In this document: positions 29,988 to 59,561 of the stretch, one piece after another
Position numbering within the stretch: position 1 is the first letter of the stretch
How the letters are laid out: each line of letters starts with the position of its first letter
Origin: Frisingicoccus sp.
GTDB taxonomy: Bacteria > Bacillota > Clostridia > Lachnospirales > Lachnospiraceae
Assembly (NCBI RefSeq): GCF_048388605.1
Contig: NZ_DBGCTU010000024.1
Location: 6,939 to 70,938, forward strand
Length of the DNA: 64,000 nucleotides
Direction: 5' to 3'
Translations under genes and position numbers: made by a program
The notes under the pieces: generated by a model
What the model was told of the DNA's origin: nothing
Databases searched by the model: none
The model's input: only the letters and a program-made list of their open reading frames with translations

Positions 29988-29993
29988 CTTTAG

Positions 29994-30200: not shown

Positions 30201-30237
30201 ATAGTATACAAGAAAGAGATAGAAAATGCAAGGATTT

Positions 30238-31149: not shown

Positions 31150-32163
31150 ACCATCCGGGAACTGCTGGAGGAATATGTCTCCATTTATGGAGTGAATACC
31201 TGGGCGCTTTCCACCTATGAGGGGCGCAGGGGGCTGATCGATAACTATATCAATCCGATTATCGGGGATATGAAGCTGGATGAAGTGACACCCCGCGTGA
31301 TAGACCGGTATTACAGGAACCTGCTCACTGTGAAATCGAAACAGCGGCCTTACCAGACGTCGCAGAACGAGTTCCTTTCACCTAGGACAGTAAAGGAAAT
31401 CCATAAGCTGCTCCGTAATGCGTTCAACCAGGCGGTGAAGTGGGAGCTGATGTCAAGAAATCCGGTAGTGAACGCTACGTTGCCGAAAAGCGAGGCGAAG
31501 CCCCGTGATATCTGGACGGCGGATATCCTGTTCCATGCTATTGAGCTTTGTGAGGACGATATCCTGAAGCTGGCGCTGAACCTTGCTTTTTCCTGTTCCC
31601 TGCGGATGGGTGAAATGCTTGCCCTTACCTGGGACTGTATCGACATAACACAGGAGAGCATAGAAGGCGGACGGGCCAGCATTTATGTCAATAAAGAGTT
31701 GCAACGGGTGCAGAGGGAATCCCTGCAGGCGCTGGATGGAAAAGGCGTTATAAAAACCTTCCCGGCGCGGCTGGCATCTCGGCATACGTCGCTGGTGCTG
31801 AAGAAGCCGAAAACAAAGACCAGTGTGCGGCGTGTGTTCCTGCCAAAGACGATAGCGGAGATGCTCCAGGAAAGATACAAAGAGATTGCGGAGATGAAAG
31901 AGCTGTTTGGGGATGAATATAGCGATTACGACCTTGTGTTCTGTTCCCCGATGGGGACGCCGATTGAAGGGCAGGTAATTAACCGTGCGCTGAATAAGCT
32001 GATTACAGATAATGACCTTCCGAAGGTCGTATTCCATAGCCTCCGCCACAGCAGCATTACATACAAGCTGAAACTGAACGGCGGCGATGCTGAAAACGCT
32101 GGTGCAGGCGATATGATATCGAGAGAAAGAGCAGGGCAGAGAAAAGCTTTGCTTTTTCTTTAA
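31111..32163 (+). pseudogene. tyrosine recombinase/phage-type integrase, truncated at both ends
   Basis: The core-binding and catalytic regions are present (TIRELLEEYVSIYGVNTWALSTYEG, the box I Arg in LRMGEMLALTW, and HSLRHS). There is no proper start. After LKLNGGD the sequence turns into unrelated residues and stops before the catalytic Tyr. Confidence 0.7.
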
Positions 32164-32255
32164 TAAAAATTTTTAAAATAATAAAGATAGGAAAGTAAGA
32201 CAATAATAAAACATATGATGAAAGGGAAAAATTTAGTTATGAGAACAGAAAGGAA

Positions 32256-32284
32256 TTGCAACTTGACGCAATCAATGTTACAAT
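32256..32284 (+). promoter_or_regulatory. promoter of the small-ORF/HD operon
   Basis: TTGCAA (32256-32261), a 17-nt spacer, then the extended -10 TGTTACAAT (32276-32284). Confidence 0.5.
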
Positions 32285-32329
32285 ATTTAGAACTAATCAC
32301 AATCTAAGAAAAACGGAGGGGTATGTAAA

Positions 32330-32689
32330 ATGTGTTTTTATATTGGAATAGAAGATTTGGCAGCCAATGCGCTCATTGAAGCGATGAAAAAGGGAAAAAA
32401 GCGTTTTCTAACATATAATGAAATAGAAAGTTATGGAGCTGAGGTTGTTCAGATTTTACATGAGAATGGTGAAAAAGCGGTCTTGGTTCTTTCGCGTGAC
32501 AATACAGATGCACTTTTTAGAAATTATTCTGAATTTTTTGAGGAAAGTGAAGAAGATGGGAAAAAAGGTATCTTATTACGTTCCGGAAAGGAAATTGAAG
32601 ATTTGGTTCATCAGTTTAGAGGTTATTTAGCATTAGATGTCTTGTTGGCATTTATGAACCAGAGGTCTATTCAGGCGTTGGGAGTATAG
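32330..32689 (+). CDS. hypothetical acidic 119-aa protein, coupled to the HD gene
   Basis: GGAGGGG RBS 8 nt upstream. The stop lies 2 nt before the HD gene ATG. I recognise no motif in it. Confidence 0.6.
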   Translation: MCFYIGIEDLAANALIEAMKKGKKRFLTYNEIESYGAEVVQILHENGEKAVLVLSRDNTDALFRNYSEFFEESEEDGKKGILLRSGKEIEDLVHQFRGYLALDVLLAFMNQRSIQALGV

Positions 32690-32691
32690 GT

Positions 32692-34326: not shown

Positions 34327-34598
34327 ATTGGTTTTACGGTAAAACCATATAGAATCTATACCAGCAATCACCATCTTATACAGGCGTTACACCAGATTGC
34401 ACGAGATTATACGTGCTTGCAAATGTGACGATTGCCCTTTTTCAGGGGGTCTGCTAATGGCTTGCTAATGGAACCACTTAAAACCAGCTTATATCAGCTT
34501 AATCGTGCCTGTACTGGCTTGACAGTGAAATGTGAAAAAAGCTTGATTTTGCTTGACTTTTCTTATACCAACTTACTTCTGCCTGACACCTTTGGGGC

Positions 34599-34644
34599 GA
34601 ACTCCTAAGCGAGGGGTCAGAGGTTCAAATCCTCCCGGAGACGG
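34599..34644 (+). other. tRNA 3'-half-like fragment 1 (anticodon loop to acceptor 3' strand); putative att remnant
   Basis: GAACTCCTAAGCG...GAGGTTCAAATCCTC...GGAGACGG shares CTCCTAAGCG with the tRNA-Arg anticodon arm. No matching 5' half lies upstream. Confidence 0.6.
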
Positions 34645-34651
34645 CTGCTAA

Positions 34652-34698
34652 AAGCGGGAATTATTAGCCGGAAAGGTTGAATAATTGTCCGCTTTTTT
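34652..34698 (+). terminator. intrinsic terminator following tRNA-like fragment 1
   Basis: GCGGGAATTATT / AATAATTGTCCGC long stem followed by TTTTTT. Confidence 0.6.
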
Positions 34699-35234
34699 CT
34701 TTGAATAAGAGGTGTTTGTTTTGATGTACCCCTGTGTTTAGACAGGTAAATCAGAGGAAAGCTCGGATAAGGGATTTGATAAGCAATATAAATGTATCAG
34801 TTCAGGCCGTGCCATTCGTAAAACCGCACTACGTGCTAACCGCGGCTGTCGCCGCTGTTTTACTCATATTCGGGCGCTCAGCACATCTGAATATCAGTCG
34901 CCGGATTTTTATGCGAGCATAAATCCGTCGCCTGACATCAGATGGCTGAACTGATATATATAAATTACATGAAGTGTCAAACGAGAAGCTCGTTTGGATC
35001 GGATTTACAAAATCCGGTCTGAACGGGCTTTTTCTGTTTCAGAAAAGAGAGGAGGCAGAGATGTGGAAGAAAGAGAGAAAGTGAAAGAGTATTGCGGAGT
35101 ACGGTATCCTGGATGATGATCGAAAGAAAAATGCGGAGCTGTTTGAGAAAGCATACCGGAATGAAATACAACACTTTACATTTATGCTTAAAAATAATAT
35201 AATATAAGAAAAAATGTAAAGAAGAGAGATATAT

Positions 35235-35828
35235 ATGACTAAAACAATGCTTTTAGAACAATTAATTGAAAAAAACCATGGGTATCTTCTTACTGCCCTT
35301 GCAGAAAAGAACCAGATTTCCAGAACATACGTAATGAAATATGTGAAAGCACATTCTATGGAGAAGGTTGCGCAAGGGATTTATATAGCTGATGATGTGT
35401 GGCCGGATGAATTATTTATCCTTCAGATCAGAAATCCTTCGGTTATTTTTTCTGGCGAAACTGCTCTTTATCTGCATGGCTTAATTGACAGAGAATATAC
35501 AGAAGTCTGTATTACAGTACCGAATGGATATAATGCCACTCGTTTGAAAAGAGATAATGTCCGGGTGAAATATGTTCCAAAAGAAATTCACAGTATGGGA
35601 GTTTGCGACGTTCCTTCCATCAGTGGGAATATAGTCAGAGCTTATGACAAAGAAAGATGTATCTGTGAATTGATAAAAGACAGAAAAAAATATGAAATAC
35701 AGAATTTTCAGACAGCAGTAAAAGATTATATGTCAAGGAAAGAGAAAAATTTATCCAGATTGCTTGAATATGCAGAAAAACTGAAAATCAGGGATGAAGT
35801 GATGAAATATGTGGAGGTACTTGTATGA
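35235..35828 (+). CDS. AbiEi/AbiGi-family antitoxin-like protein (type IV TA, abortive infection)
   Basis: 197-aa ORF with an N-terminal wHTH. Its overall sequence is typical of AbiEi_4-type proteins. It overlaps the downstream AbiEii-like gene by 4 nt (ATGA). Confidence 0.7.
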   Translation: MTKTMLLEQLIEKNHGYLLTALAEKNQISRTYVMKYVKAHSMEKVAQGIYIADDVWPDELFILQIRNPSVIFSGETALYLHGLIDREYTEVCITVPNGYNATRLKRDNVRVKYVPKEIHSMGVCDVPSISGNIVRAYDKERCICELIKDRKKYEIQNFQTAVKDYMSRKEKNLSRLLEYAEKLKIRDEVMKYVEVLV

Positions 35829-36373
35829 TTCATACATCAAAACAGCTAAAAGACAAAGTGCGTAACCTTTCAAAAGGAGATAATGACATTGCGAAGGCAC
35901 TGATCCGGACATTTATGATGGAACGATTCCTTGAAAGGGTTTCTTTATCGAAATATAGAGAAAATCTTATTTTAAAAGGCGGAATGCTTGTAGCATCTAT
36001 AGTGGGAACGAACTTAAGAGCAACAATGGACATTGATACAACAGTTAAAGCGCTTCCTTTAAATAAAACTGAGGCAGAAAAAATAGTGGATGAAATAGCT
36101 GCAGTACCTGTTGAGGATGGCGTGACCTTTCAAATTAAGTCTATCACAACGATTATGGATGATTTCGACTATCCGGGTGTCAGGATTATGCTTGAAGCTA
36201 TATTAGAAAAATTGAGGCAGAGTATAAAGCTTGATATATCTACAGATGATGTTATGGCTCAGATGTGGGAACGGTTTCGCAAGAAAAATTATTTTGTCGG
36301 TGAACTTCAATGGGAGGAGGTGTCCGGAAAAGTTATTCAAAATATACAAGAGATTGTAGTCGAAAAGTCGTAG
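35825..36373 (+). pseudogene. AbiEii/AbiGii-family nucleotidyltransferase toxin, abnormally short (probable internal deletion)
   Basis: The N-terminal NTase core is present (ILKGGMLV, MDIDT). After KLDISTDDV the sequence jumps to a C-terminal-like tail (WERFRKKNYFVGELQWEEV). It is 182 aa, whereas I recall this family as substantially longer. Confidence 0.55.
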
Positions 36374-36622
36374 ACAAACCGACCATATCACGGTATTATA
36401 TATATGTAAATCCGATTAATTTAATACTGTTTATCATTCCTGCACAACGGGAAATGGTAATCGATTCTAAAGCAGGCCATGAACAGTAATGCATTGTCCT
36501 AATATTTCATCTTTAACTCGGCATTACAGAGGCTTACAGTAATTAACCGGATTCGATTGATAAATCAAGAAATAACGTTGTTTTCTTATCATAAAAGGGA
36601 ATCGGCTTGACAGGCATGATTT

Positions 36623-36667
36623 GAACTCCTAAGCGCTAGCTGTGGGTTCGATTCCCGCAGGGGACGG
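36623..36667 (+). other. tRNA 3'-half-like fragment 2; putative att remnant
   Basis: GAACTCCTAAGCG (identical 13-mer to fragment 1), then the T arm GTGGG-TTCGATT-CCCGC, then GGGGACGG. It is followed by a hairpin and TTTTTT at 36677-36730. Confidence 0.6.
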
Positions 36668-36726
36668 TTGCAAACAAAGCGGTAATGATTAGCAGAAAAT
36701 GCTATGTCATGAAACGCTTTTTTGTT

Positions 36727-36933
36727 TTCATCAAATAAAAAAAGCAAGTGGGATACCGTCATAATCCATAAACAGCCTCATGCCGACAAGAGGAAGTAGT
36801 TGGTACAGTCATAGTAAAGGATATCCCTGTGCCGTTCAAGAATTTTTTGACTGTTTTTGTAAAGTTCCGCCTGAATAAAATCATTTTCCTCGGCGAGTAC
36901 GGAAAGGGCACGGTAAATGTCATTCAGGTCATA
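36727..36933 (-). pseudogene. IS1634/IS4-superfamily transposase fragment
   Basis: The minus-strand translation gives DIYRALSVLAEENDFIQAELYKNSQKILERHRDILYYDCTNYF then a stop. In another frame it gives LFMDYDGIPLAFFI. Both are conserved blocks of IS1634-type DDE transposases, with the intervening region deleted. Confidence 0.55.
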
Positions 36934-37464
36934 TTATAAGGGTTAGAAGGTATTTATTTGATAGAAAAACGAGATCAGACTGTCAAACTTCCGGATTCTT
37001 TTATTCACTAAAAAAGAATTGTAATTTATGTATAATTTTCGTATAATAATAAAGAGACTATGAAGGGGTCTTTTCTGCACTTATGGTTATGGAACTCTAC
37101 GGATTCACTTATTTTCTGAATTTTTATTCTGTTCCGTGACGGAATTGTCCGGAATATGCGCCGGTTGTCATGGAATATTCGGTCATGGCAGAGGAAACCA
37201 CTGGAAAGATTCTTGCAGAGATGAAATGACAGATAGTATCTGATTGCAGCTGTACCAAACAGTTCATATATATATGGCTCAGAAAGTATGCGTGAGGGCA
37301 CGATTTTGTTACGGTATCTTTGATATAATAAAATATATTTTACATAAAATGAGCTGCCCGACAAATGGTGAGCCTGCAGATTTTTTCGCACTTTGTGCTT
37401 TCAAAATCTGCAAAATAAAATAAGATGTTTGTATATAAGATTACTTGAAAAGGGGGATCGAATC

Positions 37465-38130
37465 TTGAAAAAGACGGAAAATACAGAGGTTCGAAAACAT
37501 TCATGGAGGCATATGTTTCTAACTATTCTGGGGACTGTTCTATGTATCATTCTGATTCCGATTTTAATAATGAATATTTCGCTTATTGTGAAGAGCTATA
37601 CAAATAGTGATAAAGTTCCGAGTGTTGGTGGTTATCTGCCTCTGATCGTGCTGACAGATTCTATGTATCCGGAAATACACAGCGGAGATTTGATTATTTG
37701 CCATACGATAAATCCGGAGGAGGTTGCGACAGGTGATGTGATTGCCTTTTTTGATCCGGCAGGAAATGGGACAAGCGTTGTGACACACCGGGTGGTTGAG
37801 ATAACCAGGGAGAACGGGGAACTTGCATTTATCACAAAAGGTGATGCCAATAATGCGGAGGATCAGATGCCGGTGCCAGCGGGGAGTTTGGTGGGACAGT
37901 ACCGCACCCGTATTGCCGGAGCGGGTAATATCGCAATGTTTATGCAGACCACCACGGGACTGATTGTTTGTGTGGGTGTTCCGTTGGTTCTTCTGATCGG
38001 ATATGACGTTTTGCGCCGGAGACGCTATGAGAAGAGCAGGAAGGCGGATACAGATGCGCTGCTGCGGGAATTGGAGGAGCTGCGATCCCAACAAAAAAAT
38101 GAAAAAGGTCATTCGGAGGATGACAAATAG
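37465..38130 (+). CDS. sipW: SipW-type (S26B, ER/archaeal-type) signal peptidase I, copy 1
   Basis: Contains VLTDSMYPEIHSGDLII (catalytic Ser), THRVVEI (catalytic His) and KGDANN. A C-terminal TM helix is followed by a charged tail. The start is proposed at the TTG at 37465, 7 nt after AAGGGGGA; the upstream part of the track ORF has no RBS. Confidence 0.8.
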   Translation: MKKTENTEVRKHSWRHMFLTILGTVLCIILIPILIMNISLIVKSYTNSDKVPSVGGYLPLIVLTDSMYPEIHSGDLIICHTINPEEVATGDVIAFFDPAGNGTSVVTHRVVEITRENGELAFITKGDANNAEDQMPVPAGSLVGQYRTRIAGAGNIAMFMQTTTGLIVCVGVPLVLLIGYDVLRRRRYEKSRKADTDALLRELEELRSQQKNEKGHSEDDK

Positions 38131-38229: not shown

Positions 38230-38943
38230 ATGGAGAAAAATAGAATGATGCGTTTGGCTTCTGCTCTGCTGATATTGACGCTTTTGACTACATGCATGAT
38301 CAGCGGAACCTTTGCGAAGTATACCACGAAAGCAGAAGGAAGCGATACGGCACGGGTTGCAAAGTGGGGAGTGACTGTTACGGCAAATGGCAGCACTTTT
38401 GCAACAGAATATAATACAGATGATGGAATGGTATCAGGTACTATTGCAAAGTCTGTTGTAGCAGCGACATCGGCTAGTGGAACACAAGATAATCTTGTTG
38501 CTCCGGGGACCAAGGGAGAGATGACAAAGATGGCATTGAGCGGCACACCGGAAGTTGCAGTTAAGGTGAGCTATGTAGGACAGTTTGATATCAGCGATAA
38601 TTGGAAGGTTAATGGAATATTTTATTGCCCATTAGTTATCAAAGTGAAATCTGAAACTGGTACAACAGAAATTAAGGGCTTAACGTATACAACGGCTACT
38701 GATTTTGAAAATGCTGTCAATAATGCGATTGCTGATTATAGTACAAACTATGATGCCAATACTAATCTTTCCTCCAAGTCGGATGATTTTTTGTCCGTAG
38801 AATGGGAATGGCCGTTTAGTATTACGAATGATGATAATACGACTAATGATGAAAAGGATACATTTCTTGGTGGACAGGCAGCAAGTAATAATCCGGCTAC
38901 GGTTACCCTTACAGTAACAACAACCGTAACCCAGATCGACTGA
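38230..38943 (+). CDS. TasA/BsaA/camelysin-like secreted protein with a SipW-dependent-type signal peptide (candidate major fibre subunit)
   Basis: The N-terminus MEKNRMMRLASALLILTLLTTCMISGTFAKYTTKAEGSDTARVAKWGVTV matches the h-region plus TFA(W/Y)(F/Y)T pattern of SipW substrates. The body has APGT...N and EWEWPF...DT.LGGQ...LTVTTTVTQID blocks shared with two neighbouring genes. Confidence 0.7.
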   Translation: MEKNRMMRLASALLILTLLTTCMISGTFAKYTTKAEGSDTARVAKWGVTVTANGSTFATEYNTDDGMVSGTIAKSVVAATSASGTQDNLVAPGTKGEMTKMALSGTPEVAVKVSYVGQFDISDNWKVNGIFYCPLVIKVKSETGTTEIKGLTYTTATDFENAVNNAIADYSTNYDANTNLSSKSDDFLSVEWEWPFSITNDDNTTNDEKDTFLGGQAASNNPATVTLTVTTTVTQID

Positions 38944-38983: not shown

Positions 38984-39024
38984 ACACCCGTTCCGACGTG
39001 GCCGGGCGGGTGTTTCGTCTTTTG
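38984..39024 (+). terminator. possible leaky intrinsic terminator after the 237-aa TasA-like gene
   Basis: ACACCCG (38984-38990) pairs with CGGGTGT (39007-39013), followed by TTCGTCTTTTGTTTT. Confidence 0.4.
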
Positions 39025-39117
39025 TTTTCGCCAGAATCCATGGGATGTCTCATGGATTTTCGCGAAAGCAAAAGAGAGGATGTAAAAAAATAATCTGTGA
39101 AAGGAGGCTCCCGGAGG

Positions 39118-40089
39118 ATGGAAGAGAAAAGCGGCAGAAAAGAGAAAATGAAAAGTGGGAATGAGAAAAGAGAGTTGCTTTTTGTATTTCTTTTTCTTTT
39201 CATCTGTGTGGCTTTGACCAGTATTTTGTTGGCTGAACGCCTGAGTGCCCTTGCGGCATCCGAGAGCAATATCATTGCACTGGCTCCGTCCGAAGAAAAA
39301 ATAGAAGCAATAGAAGCTCCGGGGACTTTGACAAAGGAAAGCAACTACTCAAAGTCCGAAACAGTGAGAGCTGCTGCAGCTTCCACACGGATGGATGGGC
39401 AGTCTGAAATTTCACAGGGAGAGGCTCCGGAATATCAGGCAGGAGATGGAACCGGGACATGGACAACGGATACGAGAGTAGATCTCTTTCGTGTGCAATA
39501 TGAAAATGATCAGAAGGTCGTAACGGTCTGCGGAAATGACGGAGATGAAGTGATCGCTCCGGGAACGGAAAATGACTATACCTTCTGGCTGAAAAATACG
39601 AGCAATGGGACGGCAGATTATGAGATGTCAGTGGAGGCCTATATGACGTCCGGGGAGGCGGAGATCCCCGTGAAGGCGAGAATGAAAAATGATGGGGGAG
39701 ATTACCTGCTCGGCAGTGAAGAACAGTGGGATGAGGTTTTGGCATTAAATGGAGTTTCTGACAAGGCGACCCTGGGGGCCAACCGGTATGCCCGTTATAC
39801 GCTGGAATGGCAATGGCCCTTTGAATCCGGAGACGATGAATCAGATACGGCTCTGGGAAATCAAACAGAGGGAAAGGATATAGCACTTACTGTCGTTATC
39901 AAAACAGTCACTTCGGCAAATACAGATCCTGATTTGTCCGAAGGTCTCTCGCAGCCGGGAAGATTGGGTGTTCTGCCAAAAACAGGTGATGAGACACACA
40001 TTATGTTTTATCTGCTTCTTCTTGCGGGCTCAGGAACCCTGATTGTGATCATGCTGGTGAAAAGACGGAGAGAAAAAGCTTCCAGATGA
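39118..40089 (+). CDS. LPXTG cell-wall-anchored protein with a TasA-like domain
   Basis: The C-terminus LPKTGDETHIMFYLLLLAGSGTLIVIMLVKRRREK has the sortase signal, a TM helix and a basic tail. The body shares APGTENDYTFWLKNTS and YTLEWQWPFESGDDESDTALGNQ...LTVVIKTVT with the upstream gene. The N-terminal signal has ALAAS. Confidence 0.75.
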   Translation: MEEKSGRKEKMKSGNEKRELLFVFLFLFICVALTSILLAERLSALAASESNIIALAPSEEKIEAIEAPGTLTKESNYSKSETVRAAAASTRMDGQSEISQGEAPEYQAGDGTGTWTTDTRVDLFRVQYENDQKVVTVCGNDGDEVIAPGTENDYTFWLKNTSNGTADYEMSVEAYMTSGEAEIPVKARMKNDGGDYLLGSEEQWDEVLALNGVSDKATLGANRYARYTLEWQWPFESGDDESDTALGNQTEGKDIALTVVIKTVTSANTDPDLSEGLSQPGRLGVLPKTGDETHIMFYLLLLAGSGTLIVIMLVKRRREKASR

Positions 40090-40100
40090 GGAGGATACAG

Positions 40101-40703
40101 ATGCGCAGGAGTCGGACGGAAGGAAATGCGGAAAGCCGGATAAAAGAAAAACATGAGCATGGTCTTTTGAGAAGATGCCTTTTAATAGCGGCAGGACTGA
40201 TTCTGGGAGTGAATGTCTATCTCTGGAATGCCCGCAGCCTGGGGGGAAATCAGATGCCAATGCCTTTTGGATGCGGCATGTCCGTGGTACTGTCCGGCAG
40301 TATGGAACCCACATTGAAGGTCAATGATCTGCTTCTTGTGCGGGAGAAAGATCAGTATGAAGTGGGCGATATCGTGGTATATCAGTCCGGATATGAATTG
40401 ATCGTTCATCGGATTGTTTTCATGGATGAAAATGAAGTTGTGACACAGGGGGATGCAAACAGCGTGGCAGACCCACCGATTGACCGGGAGGCAGTAAAAG
40501 GTGTTGTCAGAGCCCGGATTCCCTATGTGGGAAAACTGGTAGGTTTGCTGAAAAGGCCTGTGGGAATTTTGCTGGTTTTGATATGTGCCTTTCTTTTAAT
40601 TGAACTATCTTTCTGGAGAGAGAAAAGAATAGACGATGAGAATCTGGATGCGATCAGGGAAGAAATCCGACGACTGAAGAAGGAACAGGAGAATGACCAG
40701 TGA
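40101..40703 (+). CDS. sipW: SipW-type signal peptidase I, copy 2
   Basis: Contains VLSGSMEPTLKVNDLLLV, VHRIV and QGDANS, with a C-terminal TM helix and a charged tail. The start is at the ATG at 40101, 6 nt after GAGGAGG. Confidence 0.8.
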   Translation: MRRSRTEGNAESRIKEKHEHGLLRRCLLIAAGLILGVNVYLWNARSLGGNQMPMPFGCGMSVVLSGSMEPTLKVNDLLLVREKDQYEVGDIVVYQSGYELIVHRIVFMDENEVVTQGDANSVADPPIDREAVKGVVRARIPYVGKLVGLLKRPVGILLVLICAFLLIELSFWREKRIDDENLDAIREEIRRLKKEQENDQ

Positions 40704-40721: not shown

Positions 40722-41264
40722 ATGAATGAGACAAAAGAATATCGGCCAAACCGGGTATTTCGAGCGGCATTGGCGCTGCTATGTGTGGTACTGGTATCTG
40801 TGGGGATGATGTCAGGACTTTTGGCGAGATATACGGCCGGAGGCACCGGATCAGATGAGGCAAGAGTGGCGTCCTTTGACGTGACAGCAGATCTACAGAA
40901 TTTTGAAAAGGAATTTCCTGTGCAGCTGCAGCCGGGGAATTCTGTTACATGCAGTTTTGATATCACAAATTCCAGCGAGACAGCGGTAAATATGCAGGCA
41001 GTTTTGGAGACGGAGGGAAATCTCCCGTTAATGATAGAATATAAAAAAGGAAGTACGAATACAGGCAGTTGGGTTTCTCTTGCAAAGAATATTCAGGATG
41101 TTGAGGAAGGCTCATGCAAGTTTTCCGATGCAATGGCAGCTGGAAATAAGGAAAAACAGACCTATCAGATTCGAGTATCATGGCCTGAAGACAGAAACGG
41201 CTATCAGTATGCCAATGGAGTGGAGGCAGTGAAATTGTCCGTCACTGCCAGCCAGATCGATTAA
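40722..41264 (+). CDS. TasA/BsaA-like secreted protein with a SipW-type signal peptide (short paralogue)
   Basis: The N-terminus ...LVSVGMMSGLLARYTAGGTGSDEARVASFDVTA aligns residue for residue with the 38230 gene (SG..A.YT....GSD.ARVA). The C-terminus is KLSVTASQID. Confidence 0.7.
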   Translation: MNETKEYRPNRVFRAALALLCVVLVSVGMMSGLLARYTAGGTGSDEARVASFDVTADLQNFEKEFPVQLQPGNSVTCSFDITNSSETAVNMQAVLETEGNLPLMIEYKKGSTNTGSWVSLAKNIQDVEEGSCKFSDAMAAGNKEKQTYQIRVSWPEDRNGYQYANGVEAVKLSVTASQID

Positions 41265-41277: not shown

Positions 41278-42273
41278 ATGAAAAGTCAACACAAATTTCA
41301 TAGAAAACGAACCATTTTAGTGCTGGCTGTCATTCTGATTTTGAGCGTTACAGTAGTCGTAATGGCGAAGTATCTCCGTTCTTTTGAACCGGTCAGCGGT
41401 ATTATGACCTCAGATAAATTTTATTTTACAACGGATCTGCTGGGGGACAGTACCATGGTAGACAGCAGCGGGGAAAATCCGGGAAGCGGGTACGTATATG
41501 AGGACGTACAGGAGGGAACCTGGAACCTGTATGGCGGCGGCGCACATGAGATTACCTTTGAATTGCGCAATTATTATGATGATCTGAGAATCACACAGGG
41601 GCAGATTCCGTATACAGTCAGCGTGGAGGCAAAGACACCGGCGGATGAAAGCGGAAGCAGCAATCCGATTCAGGGATTGGCGACAATTTCCGATAATTCG
41701 GCTGATCCTGACGGTACTACCGGTTCTGAAATATCCGGAGCTCTGGGGAGTGCAGGATCGGAAGGAAAGGCCGTGCAGGAGATTACATTGTCGATAGCGG
41801 ATGAACAGACAGTTTCCTATGTTGATGGAACTGAGGTGATCGTTACGATACAAAGCACGTCCCCGTATAAGAAAATAATGAAGCTGCATTTTCTTTTGTA
41901 TCAGGTGGATACTTATCTGAGTTATGAGATTCAGGATTCTGTCGGAAGTCCTTATGCAGAATTGATTCTGATGGCGAATTCGGTTGGCACAGAGTCAACG
42001 GGCAGTGTACAGCCGTATTTGACATGGCCGAAGGATTTATCAATCGATAATACAAACGGGCTGACTTATACTTATGAGACTGATTTTGAACAACAGAGTG
42101 GAATGACAGATAGAAAAAACATGCAGATATCCCGGGCACTGCGGGCAAAAGAAAGTGAGTCGATTTATTTTTTCAAGGCGGATGTGTCGAAAAATTATTC
42201 GAAGCAGCGCACGATCGTGAATAAGAATGATGAAAACAATTATGAGATCTTGATAGGGCAGCTATCAGATTAA
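41278..42273 (+). CDS. hypothetical secreted or membrane protein with an AKY-type N-terminal region
   Basis: 331-aa ORF with an AAGGAGGAG RBS. The N-terminus KRTILVLAVILILSVTVVVMAKYLRSF resembles the h-region plus AKY motif of its neighbours. The rest shows no motif I recognise. Confidence 0.6.
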   Translation: MKSQHKFHRKRTILVLAVILILSVTVVVMAKYLRSFEPVSGIMTSDKFYFTTDLLGDSTMVDSSGENPGSGYVYEDVQEGTWNLYGGGAHEITFELRNYYDDLRITQGQIPYTVSVEAKTPADESGSSNPIQGLATISDNSADPDGTTGSEISGALGSAGSEGKAVQEITLSIADEQTVSYVDGTEVIVTIQSTSPYKKIMKLHFLLYQVDTYLSYEIQDSVGSPYAELILMANSVGTESTGSVQPYLTWPKDLSIDNTNGLTYTYETDFEQQSGMTDRKNMQISRALRAKESESIYFFKADVSKNYSKQRTIVNKNDENNYEILIGQLSD

Positions 42274-42316
42274 TTGCAGATAAAAAAGTACCGGTGAATA
42301 AAGAGGGCAGACAAAT

Positions 42317-45300
42317 ATGAGAAAGAAAAAAAGAGTATTAGCTGCTGTGTTTGCGGCGGTTTTGATTATATGTACGGTATTTGCGGAAGCGGATGTTACT
42401 GTTGCTGCAACAAGCATAGATACAAGTACATCAACAGATGCGGTTGTTCAGGAAACAGATGCGATGGTTCAGGAATCAGAGGAACAGATCGTTGATGAAA
42501 CGGAAACAGATGCGACGGTTCCGGAGACAGAAGACCAGATCGCTGATGAAACGGTGGATAACGTTCAGGAGACAATAGAGAGTGAGAGTGAAACGGAAAC
42601 TCAGGAGATAATTTCGGAAGAAACTGAGGAAGAAACTGAGGAGAAAACGCAAGAGGTAATTGCTTCGTATCCATGGTCTGATCTGGATGACGAGGCTTTT
42701 TGTGCATGGGTGACAGGCGGTGAGCATGATGAGAAACTCAAGGCCATGGATGAAGAACATGGTCAGGAGTATGAGGCCTTTCAGCAGCGTCTGGAAGAGA
42801 TCACTGCGCAGGATGTTCTGCAGCGCATCATGCAATATATAATGAATTTGAATGGATCAAACGAGAGCATAGCAACAATGAATATAGAAACAGAAGCATT
42901 TAATTCCATGTGTCAATCTATATTTGGAGTGGATTACGCTGGATTTAAAAGCAATACCAATTATGCTGAAGTTTATGTCGGACAGAACGCCGGCGGAGAA
43001 CAAACCGGTGATCTCGGCACGCAAACAAAGCCATATAATACGGTTAATGCGGCGTATTCTTCTCTATCCTCCAAATCAGGAGTGATCATCCACCTTTTGG
43101 AGAGTTATGGAAGTGTGTCTGAGCCTATAACGACTTGGCCTGATAATCCGATTCCTGCCATCATTGTCAGTGATGCATATGGAACAGCAGTTTTGAATAT
43201 GTCAGGCTTGAAATGGAACTTTCCTGCCAATACAGGCTTTTACAATGTGAAGATTAACCTTGCATATTCAGACAATACGACTGCAGCGATATTTGCCAAT
43301 GGGCATCATGTTGTATTTGGCGGTAAAGAAGAAAATAATTTTGCATTCATAAACAATAATGAAACGAATCGATATTATCCGACCCTGTTCGGCGCTTCAG
43401 AACAAGGTACAGGGACACAGAGCTCACACAGCTCTGTTGAAAATACACATCTGGAGGTTTATGGGGGAACATGGAGTCAGATTTTTGGCGGCGGTGAGTA
43501 CTATTCTGATGTAGACGGTACGGCAACAGTCATTGTGAATGGTTCCTATAGGGAGGACGGCACTCTTAAACCGGGGGCAGTTACATTTGCGGATACCGGG
43601 TTGTCCTATATGGAGGGCAGTAGCCATATCTATGGCGGCGGTGCAGGTGTTTACACTTTATTGTCCAAAGAAAATTACAGTAATGTTCAAAATACGGATG
43701 TTACGATCAGCTATATTACAACGAGTAAATATCTTACGCCCTGCGGGGGAAGTGTCACCGCCTCTGCAAAAATAAGTTTAGATTATGTCAATGCGATGGG
43801 CGTGAACGCCAGAAGCGAGGGTTCCAGTGCAAGTAAAGTATCTATTGTCATCCAGAACAGCACCATCAGCGAAGATGTTGGCGCATTAGGAGGCGGTGAC
43901 GGCGGCGCGAAGCAGGCATATAAGATGGTATCTGATATCAATGACTTTGATATCACAATAAAGAATTCTACTGTTAGGACTCTGTATGTAAAATCAAGAG
44001 CTCTTGCAGATGGCACATATAACAATTCTGTGACCGGTGTTGACTTATGTCTGGAAGACAGTACGTTTAATGAAATAACTCTGGCCAGGCTTCCCGCAAA
44101 TTACGAAAGCGGTACCGTTAATCGGCTGCGTTTAAAAAATGTAAGCTGCAATCGGTATCACGCGGAGGCAAATTTCAGAGAAATCAAACAAATCGAGCTC
44201 ATCGGGATCGGTACTGAGGCCGCGCCATTCAAGTGGGAGAACTATACATTTGGCAGCACGAATTACGGAAATGTAAATTCGGTCTCAGAGTCACTGCTGA
44301 TTGAAAACAGCTATGTAAACTTTGGGATTAACTATTCCACACAGAGTCTTGCGCTGAAAGGAAACAGCAGGGTCAGGCTGAAACAAAATCTTTCAATGGA
44401 AACGGGTGATTTTGAGGGTGATGCTGCAAGTCAGATCACGCTGGAAGACGGCAGCACCGTCAATATCAGCGGTGATGTTACCGGAACGGGAATAACGGTA
44501 GATCCTGTGTTTTCACCAGAAAATGCTTCGGCACAAATCCTGTGGAGCAGAGGAAGCAATCCAACGAACCTGTCCTATGTAAGCTCTGATAAAGCGGATT
44601 ATCGGTTCACGAAGGATTATACGGCAAGAATGGATATATGGAAGTGGTATAATTATGACCCTCCTGTATCAGAGTATTCTTATGTATATGTAGACGGTGG
44701 GCTTGGATATGATACTGCAGAGGAATACAATTCTGACCAGTGTACGGACGCAAATCTGGGGTATGATAAATTATATCCTGTGAAAACGTTTGCAAAGGCT
44801 TATTCGTTGTGTAAGGATTCAAATTACGTTATTGTTCTGTGCGGCGAATATGATCTGACCGTTGGCGAGACACCGGTAAGTCTGTTAGGGGATGCAGAAG
44901 CGAAGGATTTTCCGGTAAGAGTGCAGAGCACAGATGACAGAAATGACTATCGCAGCGTGGCAAAGCTGCGTTTTGCAGGAAGCACCGGAAATGTTACGTT
45001 ATCGGCGCCGCTGATTTTTGACAATATGAATCTGGAGTCATCGGTTGCCAATGGCAACGTCCGTATATTCAGTAATGGCAACAAAACCGAATATGGAGCC
45101 GGTGTGACCGTTATAAGAGTTGGAGATAAGTGCTCCGTTGAGGTATATGGCGGTGCAGACGGGGATAATGTTGCGTCTGCCGACCTTACCGTAAAGGCAG
45201 CATATTTTGATAAGATAGGTGCAGTCGGTAAAGATGATACAGCATCTGTGGGTGATGAAAATAATATTGTACAAACTGATATTGCGAAGCTCACGGTGAG

Positions 45301-48300
45301 TGAAAACAGCCAGGGTGTATCATCTGTGTGTTACTATGGAACCACATATGGAAGCGTACATACGGAGCTTTCCTATGCGGTTGGCAGTAAAAACATATAT
45401 AATGCTAATAGTAGTAACGGTACTGTGTATGGTGATTTTTATACAGAAGTTTCCAGCGGTAATGACAATAAGAAAAATGCCAGTGTTGTGCCCGATGGTC
45501 TGACGGTTAAGGGGAAAGTATCTTTTGTTGACCGGTCAGGAAAAACTTACTATGATTCTCTGAGTCTGAAAAAAGGTAATTTTAATGAGGTGTATATATA
45601 TCTGTCTGTTAAAGGTATAGGATCCATTGAACGTGGAAAATACGTTTCGCTTTTCGATTCGAACACAAAGGCGGATCATATAAGCTGGAATATATCAGGA
45701 AAGGTACCAAGAATTTTCGGAGCCAATGATAATGCGGGTATCAAGGCCGGAACCATGGCTGTGGATGTCGTCTTGAATAATACTGCGACAACCATCGTCA
45801 AAGCGTGTCCGGAAGCTGCCGGTAATACGGTAGACAGTGGATATCCGGAAAACGATAAGATAACGGTTACTCTGAAGGATTTTGCGGAAGGAAGCTATCT
45901 GGATGAGCTTTGGGGATTTGGCTCTATCGCATTTGATAACAGCAAGATTTTGGTAAACGCAGAAATCTCTGCGAAGAATGTTACTGTTGACCAGGGAAGC
46001 GTGGTTGTTTTTGCGAATCATGCGGCAATTGGATCTGCACCGGGTACGGGTAAGCTGACATTACAAAATGGTGGCAGTCTGGAAGTGCGAAATCAAATCG
46101 CTGTCAATGGCGATATGTGCGGCGGAGAATCGGCCGACGCTGCCGGAACGCTGATCGATAACTGGGCAGACGCAAACGACGAGACAGTAAGGATAACCGT
46201 TACCGGGAAGTCAACCGGGTATACCTATTTCTCCACGGACTATGCAAGTGCAGAAATCCAGGTAATGGGAGATACATTGGGCCATGAGTATATGGCGCCA
46301 AAGCTGCCCCCGGAGCTGCCGCCGATGAAGATTACCTGTACTCCGGCAGCTGCGGCTTCTCCGGCCAAGGAGCGTATCTGGACAGTCGAGAATCCGGTGA
46401 GCAAAAAATACATTTTTGTGAATGGAACCATTGACTCCTCTGCATCTGACTATACATCACACAATGGCTCCACTCCGGAGCTGGCCCTTGCGACACTGGA
46501 AGAAGCCTATGATACGGTACTGAATAACGGATATATTGTCCTGTGCGGAGATATTTCCCTTTCTTCATGGCCATTGAATGGTACAAAATCAGTAACGCTG
46601 ACAAGCAAAGTAACCATTGGAACCGGAGAAACTGCACGTACCTATGATTTCTTTTCTGCAGCTGCAGCGCAGCCCAGTTTTCTGGTTATAACGGATAATC
46701 TTGAGTTAAAGGGAGTGACGACCTTTGAGTATTTGAATATCAAGGCGGATAAAAATTATGTTCTGGGGGCCTGCGGGCATAAGCTTGTAATGGGACGTCA
46801 AGGCGATCCTGATTCTCTTAAGATGACAAATTTTCCGATTAGTGTTGGAGGCGGCGGATATAATCATGCGTATTCAAATATAAACAGTGATCTGACCATT
46901 CATGCGGGAATCTATAATATTGTTTCCGGCGGCAATAGTAGTGATATTATTAATGTATATAATAAATACAGCAGCGTGAATATTACGATTGATGGCGGAA
47001 CATTTCAGTCGGTCTATGCAAAATATAATTTATATGATGATTTTTCTGCTGCCAATGAAATATCTCTGTCAATCTGCAAGGCAAAGGTCGAAAATACGAT
47101 TTCTGCAATTAAAACCAATTATACGATGGGCAACGCTTATCAGGTAAATATTGGCGAAAACATGAAATTTGGTGAAGCGTGTTATATCAGAACCAGTGCC
47201 ACAACCATCAATTACACTCCCAATCCAGCCCCCAATATAACTTTCAAAATTGATGGCGGAACAGGGACCCGGTATAGAATTCCGACCATTTATGGCGGGC
47301 CAGGTGTTTATAACGGGAATAACACCATGAATGAAACAGTGACCGTGGATTTAAAGAATGTTGAAGTGGGCACTTTTATTTGTGGATCCTCGAATCAAAC
47401 TCTGCAGAAAAAGTCTAACGGTTCTATGGAATTGGTTTTAAATGAAAATGTTCATGTTTCCAAACTGTATTTGGGCGGTTCCATGCTAGCCGGCGCCAGT
47501 GCAAAGGTTTTTGTCAAATCGGATCAGGCAACCATTGATAAACTGCGTTCAGGCTCTGAGTTTTCAGCGTCAACGCCTGTAACATGCGAATTAACATATT
47601 CCACTGTGGGGACAGATTCAGAACATCCATATGTACTGAGCGGAGACGTTTGTCTGGATGGGCTGACAAAGTTAATCCTGAAAAATGCTGTGGTTGATTT
47701 TTCACAGGCAGGAAATTCAATCACGGTGGGAGAGATTAACGCCTCTGAGGGCGGCAGTATCATCCATAAGGGAAGGAACCTGACGCTGAATGCAGATTAC
47801 ACAGCCGGAACAAGTGACGAACCAACCATGTGGTATGGACAGAATGCCCCGCGCATTGTCATCAATGGTACGGTGAGCGGTACGACACACCTGCAGTCTT
47901 TGAGCGCTGACCCTTCGGCTGAAGATGGCAGTGTTACCGGTAAGTTCTATAATGGTATTTCCGTTACGGCGTCTCACAGTGATACTCATTCGGCAAATAA
48001 TTTCTTTGGACTTCAGTCCTCCGAAGGCGCAAAGCCTGAGTGGAAGGAACTTAAATTTACAGCGGGGACAGATACAGATACATGGAAAAAATCAGATGAA
48101 GGAGATACTGATGCCAGAATACAGGTGTATGTATCCTCCGAAGGGTCCGACAGCAATTCAGGCGCATTCCCGACGCCTGTCAAAACGCTGGCGCAGGCAT
48201 ATAAAAACGCGGATAGGCTTCATAAAGATGCTCCTTCCAAAACAAAGATTGAAATTATTTTGCTGGATGATATTGTGCATAATGGTGAGCTTCCGGCTTC

Positions 48301-51300
48301 GGCAGAATTGTCCAACGGTTTTTCTGTCCTGGTGAAGTCTTATGATGCCGCGTCTGCTTCCACGTTGACGATTGACAGTGACCCGGAGCTTCCGGTGGAT
48401 ACGACATTGGATAATATCATCATCAAAAGTACGGTTACGACAGGTTCTTGTGCGATTTTTGCAAACGGGAATACGCTGACTTGTACAGAGAATTTAAAGG
48501 TGGAGGCCGTCAATGGGCACTATCCTGTCATTTACGGCGGAACGAAGGATGCGACTGTCCTGGATCAGACGAACCTGCAGATATTTGGCGGAACCTGGAG
48601 CCGGATATTCGGAGGAAGTAAAACTGCATCTGTAACGACTGCAAATCTTTCGGTTGGAGGAAATGTTGATACTAAGAATGTCGGCAGCATAGCGGAAAAT
48701 GATACGGGCGTTTTCGGCGGAGGAGAGAATGGAACTGTTGGTACGGTGAACCTGAGCATTGATGGAGGTTCGTTCTATCGTGTGCTCGGCGGAGGTCTGA
48801 ATCCAGCCGCTGTTGTGCAGGGGAATATAACTGTTGATTTCAATCATGGGACAATTGACAGATTGTACGGCGGAGGACAATGGGCCCAAACTAACGGCAA
48901 TATTACAGTGAACATTGGCGGATCAAATGCTGAAGCAATGATTACGTCGATATTCCGCGGCAGCGGTCTGTATGCGGGTGTTGCCGAAGGCCAAAAAGCT
49001 ACTACGAATGTTATGGACGGTGCAATCATCAAGGAAGGAGTACAATTTGCAGCGGGCGGATATTCCGGCAACCTCGATGAAACAGAATTGAACATTTCCG
49101 GAGGAAGTATCAACTGTAACGTTTTTGCAGGCGGCTGGGGCGAAGGTACGAATGGCGCCTATGGAATTGTAGGCGAGAAGGCAGCTGTTACTATCACAGG
49201 CGGAACGATTACAGGGAATGTGTACGGCGGCGGCAATCTTGCTTTGGTGCATAACAATGCTGACAATGCTGCTGCCCTTGTAACCGTAAAAGGCGGCGCT
49301 ATTACGGGAAACGTATATGGCGGCGGCTATTCCGCAGGCGTTGATAATACCAATGTGACGATTCGGTCAAATGTCAAAGGCAGTGTGTTTGGCGGTGGAT
49401 ATGATATTACAGCGGATAAGCTTCAGGTGCAGAAGAGCAGTACTGTTACATTAGAAAGAGGTACGGTTGAAGAATCCGTTTTTGGCGGGAGTGATACGGC
49501 GGGACTTATCTCAGACTCCGTATCTGTGACGATTGCCGGAGATGTAACAGTCAAGAATGGTGTCTTTGGCGGTGGAAGCAAGGCGGCGCTTCAGATTACA
49601 CCTGATGTGAAAGTAAATAAAAACAAAACACTTACCGGTAGTATTTATGGCGGCGGCAAAGGCGCGGTGAACGGAGCTGTAGGAGCGATACAGAATGGAA
49701 TGATGTCCTTTTTCGCGCTATTTAGTGCAGAGAAAAGTTATACGATCGACGGTCTGACCGATGCGAATGTGCCTTCCACAAATGTTATAATCGAAGGTAC
49801 CGTGACGGGCGATGTCTTCGGCGGCGGAGAGATGGCTACCGTTGGAAAAGAAGACAGTACAACATGGAATAAGACTGTTACGAATGTAACATTGGAGAAT
49901 GGCGCTTCTGTGGATGGAAATATCTATGGAGGCGGGAAAGGCCAGAGCGAAAAAGACTATGCCGTTGTATATGGTTGTACCAGCGTCAGCTTAAATGGCG
50001 GTACGGTTAAAGCTGATCAAGATGACGAGAAGGCTGTTGCCGGGGCGGTTTTTGGGGGCGGTCAGATTGCCCCTGTGGCAGGCAGTACAAATGTCATAGT
50101 GAACGGGGGAACAATCAGTAATATCTTCGGCGGTAATGATGTTGAGGGCGAAGTCAATCAAACGACCAATGTGACGGTACCTGAAAACAGTACAGCAACG
50201 GTTACTCACATTTATGGCGGAGGCCGTAATGCAGCGCATAATCGGAATTCCGAATCTGATAAAGCGAACAACGTAACAATCAATGGTGGTAGCATTACAC
50301 AGATTTATGGCGGTGGTTATGGTGCTGCAGCGGTTTCCGGTGATACAGATGTAACGATTGCAGGTGGCATTGTGACAGAGGTGTTCGGCGGCGGTAATGC
50401 AGCCAAAACGAAGAAAGCATCCGTGACGATCACAGGCGGAAGGATTGATACAGCCTATGCAGGCGGAAATGCCGCAACTGTGACAGGTACAGATGAAGGG
50501 GCCGCAACTCTGACGGTGAATACAACAGACGATGTTCAACATGTAAACACTGTATTTGCCGGAAACAATCAGGAACCAATGGACATTCAGCCGGTTCTTG
50601 TTCTGACTGACGGTAAAATCGGAACCGTTTATTGTGGCGGAAATGCCGGAATTATGAGAAAAGCAGATGGCCTGACTTATGATTTTGACTATCCGAATAT
50701 TGAAGTTGGTACAGTCTATGCCGGATGCAACAATACGCCAAGTGATACTCCGACGGCTGATGTGAAACTGAATCTGATATCCGGAATCTATCATACCGTT
50801 TATGGCGGAAATAATGTAAACGGCAGAATGCAGCAGACAGACGTGGTGATCGATCGGGCTGAATTAAAAGATTTGACAGTCGATACGGTCTATGGCGGAG
50901 GAAACAAGGCTGAATCCAAAGCCACGAAGGTTGAGCTGCAAAATGGTACAGCAGCCACGGTGTATGGCGGCGGTAATGCGGCTACGGTAACGGATAGTGT
51001 GAAGATTCAGATGGGCGTACCGGACGACACAGGAAGTATACCGGGAGATGTATTTGTTACAGACCTCTACTGTGGAAATAACCAGGCGGATATGAAGATC
51101 CAGCCGGAGATCGATCTTAAGAAGGGAACGATCACGAACTTCTACGCCGGGGGAAATGCCGGAGATATGCTGTATCTGAGTACTGCAGACGGAACTGGTT
51201 ATACGGCGAATTATACCTTTGCCAGCGAGCAGGTATCGATCACGAATCTGTTCGGCGGCTGCAATCAGGCGGATATGGCAGGAACGGTAAGGCTTGTCCT

Positions 51301-58700: not shown

Positions 58701-59561
58701 GTTACTCTGGATTTCAGGAAAAGCGGAAAAACCGTAAAGAGCGGTCCGATTGAAGAGTTGGTGGGATTGAACGCTTTGGTTGCAGATGATGACGCCGATG
58801 TATGTATGCATATCTGTGATATGCTGATCGAGATCGGTATGAGAACAGAATGGACGACATTGGGCAAAGAGGCAGTGCTGAAAGCGGAATTTGCAGTAAA
58901 GAATAATAATGAGTACAGCGCCTATATTATTGATTGGTTGATGCCGGACATGAATGGAATCGAAGTCGTTCGCCGAATCCGGCGTGTGATCGGGGAGAGT
59001 ACGCCGATCATCATACTGACGGCATATGATTGGGCTGAAATCGAAGATGAAGCAAGAGATGCGGGAGTCACCGATTTCTGTTCTAAGCCTTTGTTTATGT
59101 CAGAGCTTCGCGCAATTTTAAATAAACGTTTTGTGGAGGATACTGTTGATGCGGAACCGGAGGAGAAAACGGTTGATTTCGAGGGAAGGACGATTCTCCT
59201 TGTTGAAGATAATGAACTGAATCAGGAAATTGCCGTCGAGATTCTTAAAGAAGCAGGCTTTGTGATCGATGTGGCAAATGATGGTGATGTGGCGGTTGAT
59301 ATTATGAGTAAGGCGGTACCGGGACAGTATGATTTAATTCTTATGGATGTGCAGATGCCGACGATGGACGGTTATGAGGCGACAAAAGCAATCCGACAGC
59401 TCCCTGACCCGGAGATCGCCAACATTCCGATTCTTGCAATGACTGCAAATGCGTTTGATGAAGACAAGAAAAATGCCCTTGCGGCAGGTATGAATGGACA
59501 TATTGCTAAGCCGATTGAGATACCGGGATTGATGGAGATGCTGAGGGATATTTTGGCATAG
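55746..59561 (+). CDS. hybrid sensor histidine kinase with an extracytoplasmic Cache-like domain and two receiver domains
   Basis: Two TM helices bracket a region of about 270 aa that is presumably extracytoplasmic. H-box [27 protein letters not shown] and G2 box [13 protein letters not shown] are present. REC1 has [11 protein letters not shown] and REC2 has [13 protein letters not shown]. The start is at the ATG at 55746, after GGAGGGTG. Confidence 0.9.

Follow-up and report, generated by a model that had tools for sequence, protein, structure and literature searches.

A 4,379-residue secreted protein of predicted beta-solenoid fold and without a recognizable anchor closes a conserved SipW-type operon in Frisingicoccus sp. 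and may be displayed on a fiber

The stretch of DNA analyzed here is a 64-kb window (64,000 nucleotides [nt]) of contig NZ_DBGCTU010000024.1 from Frisingicoccus sp. (Lachnospiraceae). At 42317..55456, on the + strand, it carries a gene coding for a protein of 4,379 amino acids (aa), which we refer to as the giant (WP_418746427.1, named “beta strand repeat-containing protein”). The gene is the last of a run of seven; the six located 5' of it are on the same strand, with intergenic gaps of -4 to 153 nt, and code for two SipW-type signal peptidases, the small secreted protein p247 with two paralogs, and a protein of 331 aa (p331). As described in a first-pass annotation of the window, the giant gene is one uninterrupted frame of 4,379 codons with zero internal stops, according to both the listing of open reading frames (ORFs) and the translation. 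An AGAGGG ribosome-binding site is found 8 nt 5' of its ATG. Since exactly the same product is present in RefSeq and on four assembled contigs, the gene is not an assembly artifact. From the N to the C terminus, the layout of the protein is a signal peptide, an acidic spacer, a region of ca. 100 aa, three modules of ca. 570 aa, a fourth one with ca. 40 rungs, a junction domain, and a string of immunoglobulin (Ig)-like domains. Such a chain would make a Sec-secreted fibrous surface protein with an expected length of roughly 70 to 90 nm. The features of the operon and of the giant are the following (all on the + strand; aa positions are those of the giant, and arrows mark signal peptide cleavage sites):

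37393..38130, + strand: SipW-type (archaeal-type) signal peptidase I, copy 1; start codon uncertain; TIGR02228 E=9e-31, 106.8 bits versus a cutoff of 51.85
38230..38943, + strand: p247, presumed major fiber subunit; 237 aa from M11; signal ...SGTFA↓KYTT, C terminus ...TQID
39004..39020, + strand: terminator-like hairpin just 3' of the p247 gene; weak evidence, as sites of this kind are no more frequent in the region than expected from shuffles
39097..40089, + strand: LPXTG-anchored p247 paralog, 330 aa; LPKTG, hydrophobic stretch and KRRREK; TIGR01167 21.5 bits versus a cutoff of 15.9; PF00746 E=8e-4
40086..40703, + strand: SipW-type signal peptidase I, copy 2; 4-nt overlap with the LPXTG gene; TIGR02228 E=1e-19, 70.8 bits (above cutoff); Peptidase_S24 E=7e-7
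40722..41264, + strand: p180, minor p247 paralog; 180 aa; signal ...SGLLA↓RYTA, C terminus SQID; hidden Markov model (HMM) of the p247 motif E=2e-8
41278..42273, + strand: p331, secreted or membrane tethered; 331 aa; ...MAKY... N terminus; candidate adaptor or partner of the giant
42317..55456, + strand: giant gene
42317..42385, + strand: Sec signal peptide, aa 1-23, MRKKKRVLAAVFAAVLIICTVFA↓EA; ordinary type, read from the translation
42386..42958, + strand: acidic, low-complexity spacer rich in E, T and D (aa 24 to ca. 116), then a region of ca. 100 aa (aa 117-214); read from the translation
42959..44677, + strand: beta-helix module 1, aa 215-787; self-BLAST versus module 4 E=1e-12
44678..46405, + strand: beta-helix module 2, aa 788-1363; self-BLAST versus module 4 E=2e-6; best-predicted part of the model
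46406..48103, + strand: beta-helix module 3, aa 1364-1929; self-BLAST versus the array E=2e-8; head alignment
48104..52186, + strand: head of module 4 and ca. 40 rungs ending in (V/I)(Y/F)GGG, aa 1930-3290; rung list, statistics and alignment
52187..53236, + strand: last rungs and conserved “junction” domain, aa 3291-3640; GVYGDGNLCLV, FYSLQRAD and NPGEGGGFVY, with invariant columns
53237..55453, + strand: string of Ig-like beta-sandwich domains, aa 3641-4379, ending in the conserved strand pair GTYRLEFTYQNKTEYWDLIVR
55689..55709, + strand: terminator-like hairpin downstream of the giant gene; one site versus 0.3 expected

The repeated architecture is evident along most of the giant. The module heads start at aa 237, 819, 1384 and 1949 (nt 43025, 44771, 46466 and 48161), with spacings of 582, 565 and 565 aa, so that all four heads reported earlier at intervals of about 570 aa were located. 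They belong to true paralogs and are not chance matches, because self-BLAST aligned module 1 with module 4, module 2 with module 4, and module 3 with the array at the E values listed above. Landmarks common to the four heads are Y(V/I)x..., PxxTxxxAY, IFANG(H/N) and LxVxGGxWxxIFGG. The last one had been described as a rung L.(V/I)(Y/F)GG.W..IFGG following each head, which is accurate for modules 1 (HLEVYGGTWSQIFGGG) and 4 (NLQIFGGTWSRIFGGS), the only ones where it is intact, and too generous for modules 2 and 3, in which only degenerate versions remain (DLTVKAAYFDKIGAVG and DLTIHAGIYNIVSGGN, respectively). The expansion of the fourth module into a (V/I)(Y/F)GGG array, also proposed then, is unmistakable. 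The giant contains 35 copies of the rung motif [VILFYC][YF][GAC]G[GNCS], and 33 of these fall within aa 2097-3283, whereas 1,000 shuffled sequences had 0.63 copies on average and never more than 5. Spacings between motifs are mostly 24 to 36 aa (median, 31), and the aligned rungs have a unit of ca. 25 residues, N.A.v...t.V.i.gG..I.g.VYGGG. The regular rung periodicity of the beta-helix fold is therefore present in the giant. Its composition is rich in glycine (11.4%) and threonine (9.7%), and the G+C content across the gene is 0.43 to 0.50 (window positions 42000-56000) versus 0.34 to 0.41 in the 10 kb before it, a difference that is probably due to the abundance of Gly, Ala and Thr rather than to a foreign origin.

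No curated family accounts for these repeats. The whole giant matched no family in Pfam, NCBIfam, PHROGs or the PDB sequences, and five segments of it remained empty even at E<=10; this includes the curated beta-helix families Beta_helix, Pectate_lyase_3, NosD, DUF1565, Chlamydia_PMP and PATR. The search for Beta_helix and Pmp families suggested by the first-pass annotation was thus negative, with no Beta_helix, Pectate_lyase or Pmp HMM matched. Sequence and profile searches of the PDB with the giant, its C-terminal region, the rung profile, p247 and p331 retrieved chance matches only. The fold models, both of them all-beta, cover aa 205-1363 and aa 3180-4379, with module 3 and most of the array outside both. 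The AlphaFold2 model of modules 1 and 2 (aa 205-1363), built from a six-sequence alignment, has a predicted local distance difference test score (pLDDT) of 74, with module 2 mostly at 80 to 94, and short periodic strands make up nearly all of it. Among the 19 top PDB neighbors of this model, 18 are right-handed beta-helix or solenoid proteins, such as a PL6 lyase, GH136, Fap2, Hbp, SepA, HxuA, pertactin, TibA, EtpA and tailspikes, at E values of 0.08 to 1.5 and TM-scores of <=0.37. In BFVD, the neighbors were annotated as “right handed beta helix,” “pectate lyase superfamily” or “DUF1565” (best E=5.5e-4). The solenoid fold of the modules claimed in the first-pass annotation seems, in consequence of these moderate-confidence predictions, well supported in kind, short of proof.

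The C-terminal part of the giant is of a different nature. The AlphaFold model of aa 3180-4379 (17 sequences; pLDDT 73 overall and ca. 80 to 90 in the Ig-like string) starts with the last rungs and a short helical insert, which are followed by the junction domain and then by a string of beta-sandwiches, predicted to be about five or six. Foldseek relates this model to arrays of MG and Ig domains, including alpha-2-macroglobulin (5e-11), complement C5, an archaeal S-layer protein and titin. The last ca. 1,000 aa, described before as non-repetitive, are so in sequence, while the model has repeated beta-sandwich domains. The junction domain is the most conserved part of the giant family and the sole C-terminal part that the giant has in common with those of Bacteroidaceae and Prevotellaceae and with Gordonibacter.

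Nowhere in the giant could an anchor be recognized, as had been suspected. The protein ends in ...TEYWDLIVR, and neither Gram_pos_anchor nor TIGR01167 found an LPXTG sorting signal; HMMs of wall-binding modules (SLH, LysM, choline-binding, GW, WxL and SH3b) matched nowhere in the giant. With Pfam at E<=10, the last 1,049 aa gave only a chance match to Big_4 (E=4), a profile of 17 giant homologs found nothing in the PDB, and the C-terminal fold search retrieved generic Ig/MG arrays and nothing like a wall-binding module. The same holds for the relatives: 23 of the best 150 representatives share the C-terminal region, and all 23 end in ...GTYRLEFxYxDKxEYWDFIV, with no sorting signal. The pattern of this last strand pair (aa 4355-4379), G-x-Y-x-L-x-F...(L/V)I(V/K), is similar to that of the final strands in the C-terminal domain (CTD) recognized by the type IX secretion system (T9SS) in Bacteroidota relatives (P0183, P0278 and P0279), which could reflect a shared beta-sandwich fold or be a coincidence.

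At the other end, the giant has a VFA↓EA cleavage site and not the GTFA↓KY type of p247, and its homologs have similar N termini, without Cys. Lipoprotein anchoring was rejected, LIIC not being a canonical lipobox and the homologs lacking a Cys at that position. Acidic spacers are also present in other homologs, e.g., P0005, and only aa 117-200 of the N-terminal stretch are conserved (62%) in L001, the closest metagenomic homolog. A helical region can be expected at aa 117-214, outside both models, from the sequence alone. Other kinds of giant proteins were considered as well. A CdiA-type contact-dependent toxin was discarded, as there is no C-terminal toxin domain and the C terminus is the most conserved part rather than a variable one, and so was a phage tail fiber or tailspike, as PHROGs was empty and the gene is in a chromosomal operon near oriC. 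No Pfam domain typical of type V or two-partner secretion (autotransporter barrel or TPS domain) was found in the giant, and the host belongs to the Bacillota.

The genes that precede the giant are those of a putative fiber. p247, 100% identical to a hypothetical protein of Frisingicoccus sp. (P0018), belongs to a family that comprises 5,994 clusters at 90% identity. All 120 listed clusters lack a Pfam domain, and no NCBIfam model matched the members tested, even at E<=10. The family has an invariant N-terminal motif, GxDxARVAKWGV (the N-terminal strand of p247 is KYTTKAEGSDTARVAKWGV), and an invariant C-terminal ...TQID; its alignment (A8) shows the Q-I-D-COOH end, D39, R42 and E108 as invariant. 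The LPXTG paralog has the motif EW(E/Q)WPF...D..DT.LG.Q in common with p247, and has orthologs in loci L003, L005, L006, L007, L012 and L018. SipW copy 1 also has orthologs at the equivalent position of the operon (L003, L006, L007 and L018); against the Bacillus SipW equivalog it scores 93.5 bits, under the cutoff of 190. Upstream of it there is ca. 1 kb (36400-37390) without a convincing ORF and without any Rfam family at the gathering threshold, which could act in regulation or as a long leader. No riboswitch (e.g., for cyclic di-GMP [c-di-GMP]) was detected 5' of the operon, the only Rfam match in the whole window being one tRNA.

This arrangement is conserved well beyond Frisingicoccus. 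The same six genes precede a giant homolog in all 10 Bacillota loci compared (L001, L006 to L012, L018 and L020), in identical order except for L018, where the first two are swapped. Besides the two SipW-type peptidases and the LPXTG paralog, this set includes an abundant secreted protein of 220 aa with a TasA/CalY-like GTFA↓KY signal (the p247 type), a paralog of 180 aa, and p331, of 320 aa. The giant homologs in these loci have 1,547 to 4,169 aa and come from sources that include Faecalimonas, a Bacilli metagenome-assembled genome (MAG) and Eubacteriales MAGs. Two more loci have the six-gene core with another last gene, coding for a protein of 639 aa that itself has a FAKY signal (L003) or for an unrelated protein of 1,685 aa (L005); therefore, the last position of the operon behaves as an exchangeable cargo slot. 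The p331 family is absent from these two giant-less operons. Conversely, its HMM matches the gene directly upstream of the giant homolog in 12 of 12 loci checked. One of them is L019, an actinobacterial locus close to Gordonibacter (see also L013), where the match (E=1.4e-10) falls on the C-terminal half of a 617-aa protein that begins with a type IV prepilin cleavage/methylation domain (TIGR02532). The cluster of this gene also contains other pilin-like genes and one for a PilB/GspE-type ATPase. The p331-like domain that accompanies the giant family is thus carried by two kinds of filament subunit that are unrelated to each other. In both Gordonibacter-like Actinomycetota loci (L019, 194-12196; L013, 4931-19252), the giant homolog (1,814 to 2,301 aa) is within a type IV pilus cluster, in which there are several prepilin-like genes and the PilB/GspE ATPase has an MshE-type c-di-GMP-binding N-domain.

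Relatives of the giant itself are numerous. An exhaustive HMMER search with aa 1900-3099 retrieved 1,128 representative clusters at E<=1e-3, 518 of them at E<=1e-10, mostly of 2,000 to 6,800 aa. Many other rung-sharing relatives are Bacteroidota, some with T9SS tails or Flg_new_2 and none with a Pfam domain over the rungs. The number of modules in the family goes from one (P0005, 1,547 aa) to four or more. A word-index search with aa 200-1399 was empty even though homologs of 72 to 88% identity exist, which reflects a limit of the tool and not the biology, and a scan of contigs with the N-terminal modules found no relative, while a second one with the C-terminal alignment did. L001 is ca. 80% identical to the giant up to ca. 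aa 2200 and ca. 40% beyond, the identity falling sharply near aa 2200-2400. This suggests that the array and the C-terminal half may have been replaced by recombination between strains, a mosaic pattern typical of surface proteins under diversifying selection and points to an adhesin-like evolution of the giant. The giant gene of L001 is split into three ORFs (764, 2,207 and 1,734 aa) by frameshifts or assembly errors.

The reading that we favor, with a probability of about 0.5, is that the giant is a filament-displayed adhesin held in trans on a SipW-processed p247 fiber, which is anchored via the LPXTG paralog. The two SipW-type peptidases would process the precursors of the GTFA↓KY type, and the abundant p247 would then polymerize into a fiber similar to those of TasA or BsaA. 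A sortase encoded elsewhere would link the LPXTG paralog, as the base of the fiber, to the peptidoglycan, with p180 and p331 as minor subunits. Finally, p331 would couple the giant to the fiber, leaving it as a distal, strain-variable adhesin retained in trans. The first-pass annotation had presumed that the giant relies on the products of neighboring genes to be retained; its place as the seventh gene of a strictly syntenic operon with an LPXTG protein and two SipW peptidases, and the pairing with p331 across two filament systems, give this idea real though indirect support.

Several results weigh against this reading. No sortase gene was found in the 64-kb window, and the PDB fold-search scores of the aa 205-1363 model are not statistically significant for a beta-helix. 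With regard to the fiber, Peptidase_M73 (PF12389) has no match in p247, a profile built from 23 p247 members did not retrieve any TasA chain from the PDB, and hhalign of p247 with TasA aligns only the 29 columns of the signal peptide, with 9% probability. The donor-strand-like N-terminal motif of p247 was not found in the giant by HMM, and the signal peptide of the giant is an ordinary one. In the analogous operon of Clostridium perfringens, no attachment of BsaB to BsaA oligomers was seen, and BsaC, the product of the last gene, was recovered in the culture supernatant (10.1101/2024.11.04.621531). The missing donor-strand-like motif, the ordinary signal peptide and the release of BsaC, together with the lack of an anchor, are also what one would expect if the giant were released, i.e., a matrix or scaffold protein secreted into the biofilm matrix or the gut mucus and neither attached to the fiber nor retained by the cell. 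We consider this unlikely, although it has more in its favor than the explanations discussed below. Against it, the p331 and giant genes are strictly adjacent in the 12 loci, and another type of filament system has a pilin with a p331-like domain fused to it, which argues for a physical coupling to a filament. The extreme conservation of the C-terminal strand pair, while the rest diverges, suggests a docking interface too.

The structural neighbors of the modules raise another possibility, a multicatalytic carbohydrate-active enzyme in which the modules are polysaccharide lyases or glycosidases like PL6 or GH136 and the Ig-like tail is a mere spacer. PL6 alginate lyases and GH136 lacto-N-biosidases of gut Bacillota are indeed among the top hits, and the module heads have a cap typical of pectate-lyase-like enzymes, with a pattern that we take to be DUF1565-like. 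However, the E values of the fold search (0.08 to 1.5) and the absence of any Pfam or NCBIfam enzyme family in all segments, even at E<=10, speak against catalysis, as does the monotony of the ca. 40-rung array, without obvious catalytic insertions. Besides, the synteny is with fiber genes and not with sugar utilization genes, and we give this explanation very little credit. It is equally improbable that the giant is held by its own N terminus, with the signal peptide uncleaved or cleaved late by SipW, the acidic spacer crossing the wall, and the neighboring genes irrelevant to its retention. In favor of this, the signal sequence of BsaA reportedly tethers the oligomers to the membrane until SipW cleaves it (10.1101/2024.11.04.621531), SipW is present twice in the operon, and a spacer of ca. 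90 aa, acidic and of low complexity, comes right after the signal peptide in both the giant and its homologs. Still, the cleavage site is a normal one, the spacer shows no sequence conservation, and this explanation does not account for p331 occurring together with the giant.

Display of the giant on the p247 fiber admits a broader and quite tentative extension, namely, that the seven-gene cluster represents a third, undescribed type of surface filament in Gram-positive bacteria, in addition to sortase pili and type IV pili. Such a filament would be processed by SipW, have an LPXTG paralog as its base, and use p331 to dock giant cargo, from 639 to more than 4,000 aa, through the junction domain or the C-terminal strand; the docking domain would have been transplanted onto type IV pilins of Eggerthellaceae, and the whole system would be very common in gut Clostridia. 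Lachnospiraceae are dominant commensals of the human gut, and their attachment to mucus, food particles and other cells is little understood. If the proposed display is correct, they have a widespread fiber system that lacks any database annotation, with modular display of very large, rapidly diversifying adhesins that have no anchor of their own, and evolution has reused the p331 docking domain on two unrelated types of filament. If it is wrong, the giant still exemplifies a large, uncurated family of VYGGG-rung beta-solenoids common to Bacillota and Bacteroidota.

The genomic context of the operon deserves some comment. The window spans the region of the chromosomal replication origin (271-28075), with gyrA, gyrB, recF, dnaN and dnaA on the - strand and rnpA, yidC, jag, mnmE, mnmG, rsmG, parA and parB on the + strand, and the GC skew changes sign at ca. 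14 kb. The distance from the origin to the fiber operon is ca. 25 to 40 kb, and the operon is transcribed in the direction of replication. Directly upstream of it, positions 29914-36373 look like a small integrated defense islet, starting with a tRNA (29914-29987) that is followed by Abi_2, a phage-type integrase, an HD-domain dGTPase-like gene and an AbiEi/AbiEii pair, of which the AbiEii ORF spans only profile positions 1-112 of 238. Directly downstream of the giant (55731-59561), there is a hybrid histidine kinase of 1,276 aa (HisKA, HATPase_c and two receiver stretches), whose first ca. 760 aa match no family. Of the two loci examined for this gene, it is also beside the giant in L020 and not at that position in L018.

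The VYGGGN-repeat giants of Bacteroidota with T9SS C-terminal domains (e.g., P0278, P0279 and L014 to L017) have the same rung type as the giant, and in some of them the junction domain (aa 3367-3622) is present too. Instead of an Ig-like tail ending in EYWDFIV, these proteins have Por_Secre_tail or Flg_new_2 domains, and no homologs of the SipW operon genes were found beside them in L014 to L017. The right-handed beta-helix adhesins of Gram-negative bacteria, such as pertactin (1DAB), Hbp (3AK5), Fap2 (9QE7), EtpA (8VBB) and HxuA (4RM6), are long rods with triangular rungs of ca. 20 to 30 residues, and they are among the top structural neighbors of the model of modules 1 and 2, at nonsignificant E values. 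However, their export is of type V or two-partner type and needs an outer membrane, whereas the giant belongs to a Gram-positive bacterium and has only a Sec signal, with no beta-barrel or TPS domain.

The logic of a large adhesin placed on a filament through a dedicated minor subunit is that of the tip adhesins of sortase pili and the minor-pilin-borne adhesins of type IV pili, and the p331-prepilin fusion of L019 fits it. Unlike in these pili, the giant has neither a pilin-type sortase motif nor a pilin fold, and the filament would be SipW dependent. A dedicated SipW peptidase is found in the tapA-sipW-tasA operon of Bacillus subtilis, which makes TasA fibers by donor-strand exchange (PDB 8AUR, cited in 10.1101/2024.11.04.621531). 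As in the TasA/BsaA systems, a SipW-type peptidase gene adjoins the subunit gene here (TIGR02228, 106.8 and 70.8 bits; cutoff, 51.85). In the part aligned by hhalign, the signals of TasA (...GGTWA↓AF) and p247 (...GGTFA↓KY) both have GGT(F/W)A followed by an aromatic residue. An accessory paralog is thought to anchor or nucleate the fiber in Bacillus; here, the LPXTG paralog stands in place of TapA. The tasA operon of Bacillus has no gene for a giant cargo.

The closest known system to the operon of the giant is sipW-bsaA-bsaB-bsaC of C. perfringens, in which BsaA has an N35-K74 isopeptide lock. It is a biofilm-matrix operon (Obana 2020, PMC7395162; 10.1101/2024.11.04.621531). Genes of the BsaA/TasA family are often found beside LPXTG, signal peptidase and sortase genes and probably code for surface filaments (10.1101/2024.11.04.621531). 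Both operons have a SipW-type gene and then a small secreted subunit, with a signal of ca. 27 to 29 residues followed by an N-terminal strand region, a paralog with LPXTG (in most strains in the case of bsa), a large secreted protein in the last position, and a host of the Clostridia. Beyond the signal peptide, the p247 family has no detectable sequence similarity to TasA or BsaA, the direct comparison being with TasA only. Unlike the bsa operon, that of the giant has two SipW genes and one of the p331 type, and its last gene codes for a rod of 4,379 aa with beta-helix and Ig-like parts, versus a 70-kDa vWA protein in bsa. What distinguishes it from the systems described so far is, then, the combination of a duplicated SipW, a subunit family unrecognizable by sequence, the p331 partner and a giant beta-helix/Ig-like cargo.

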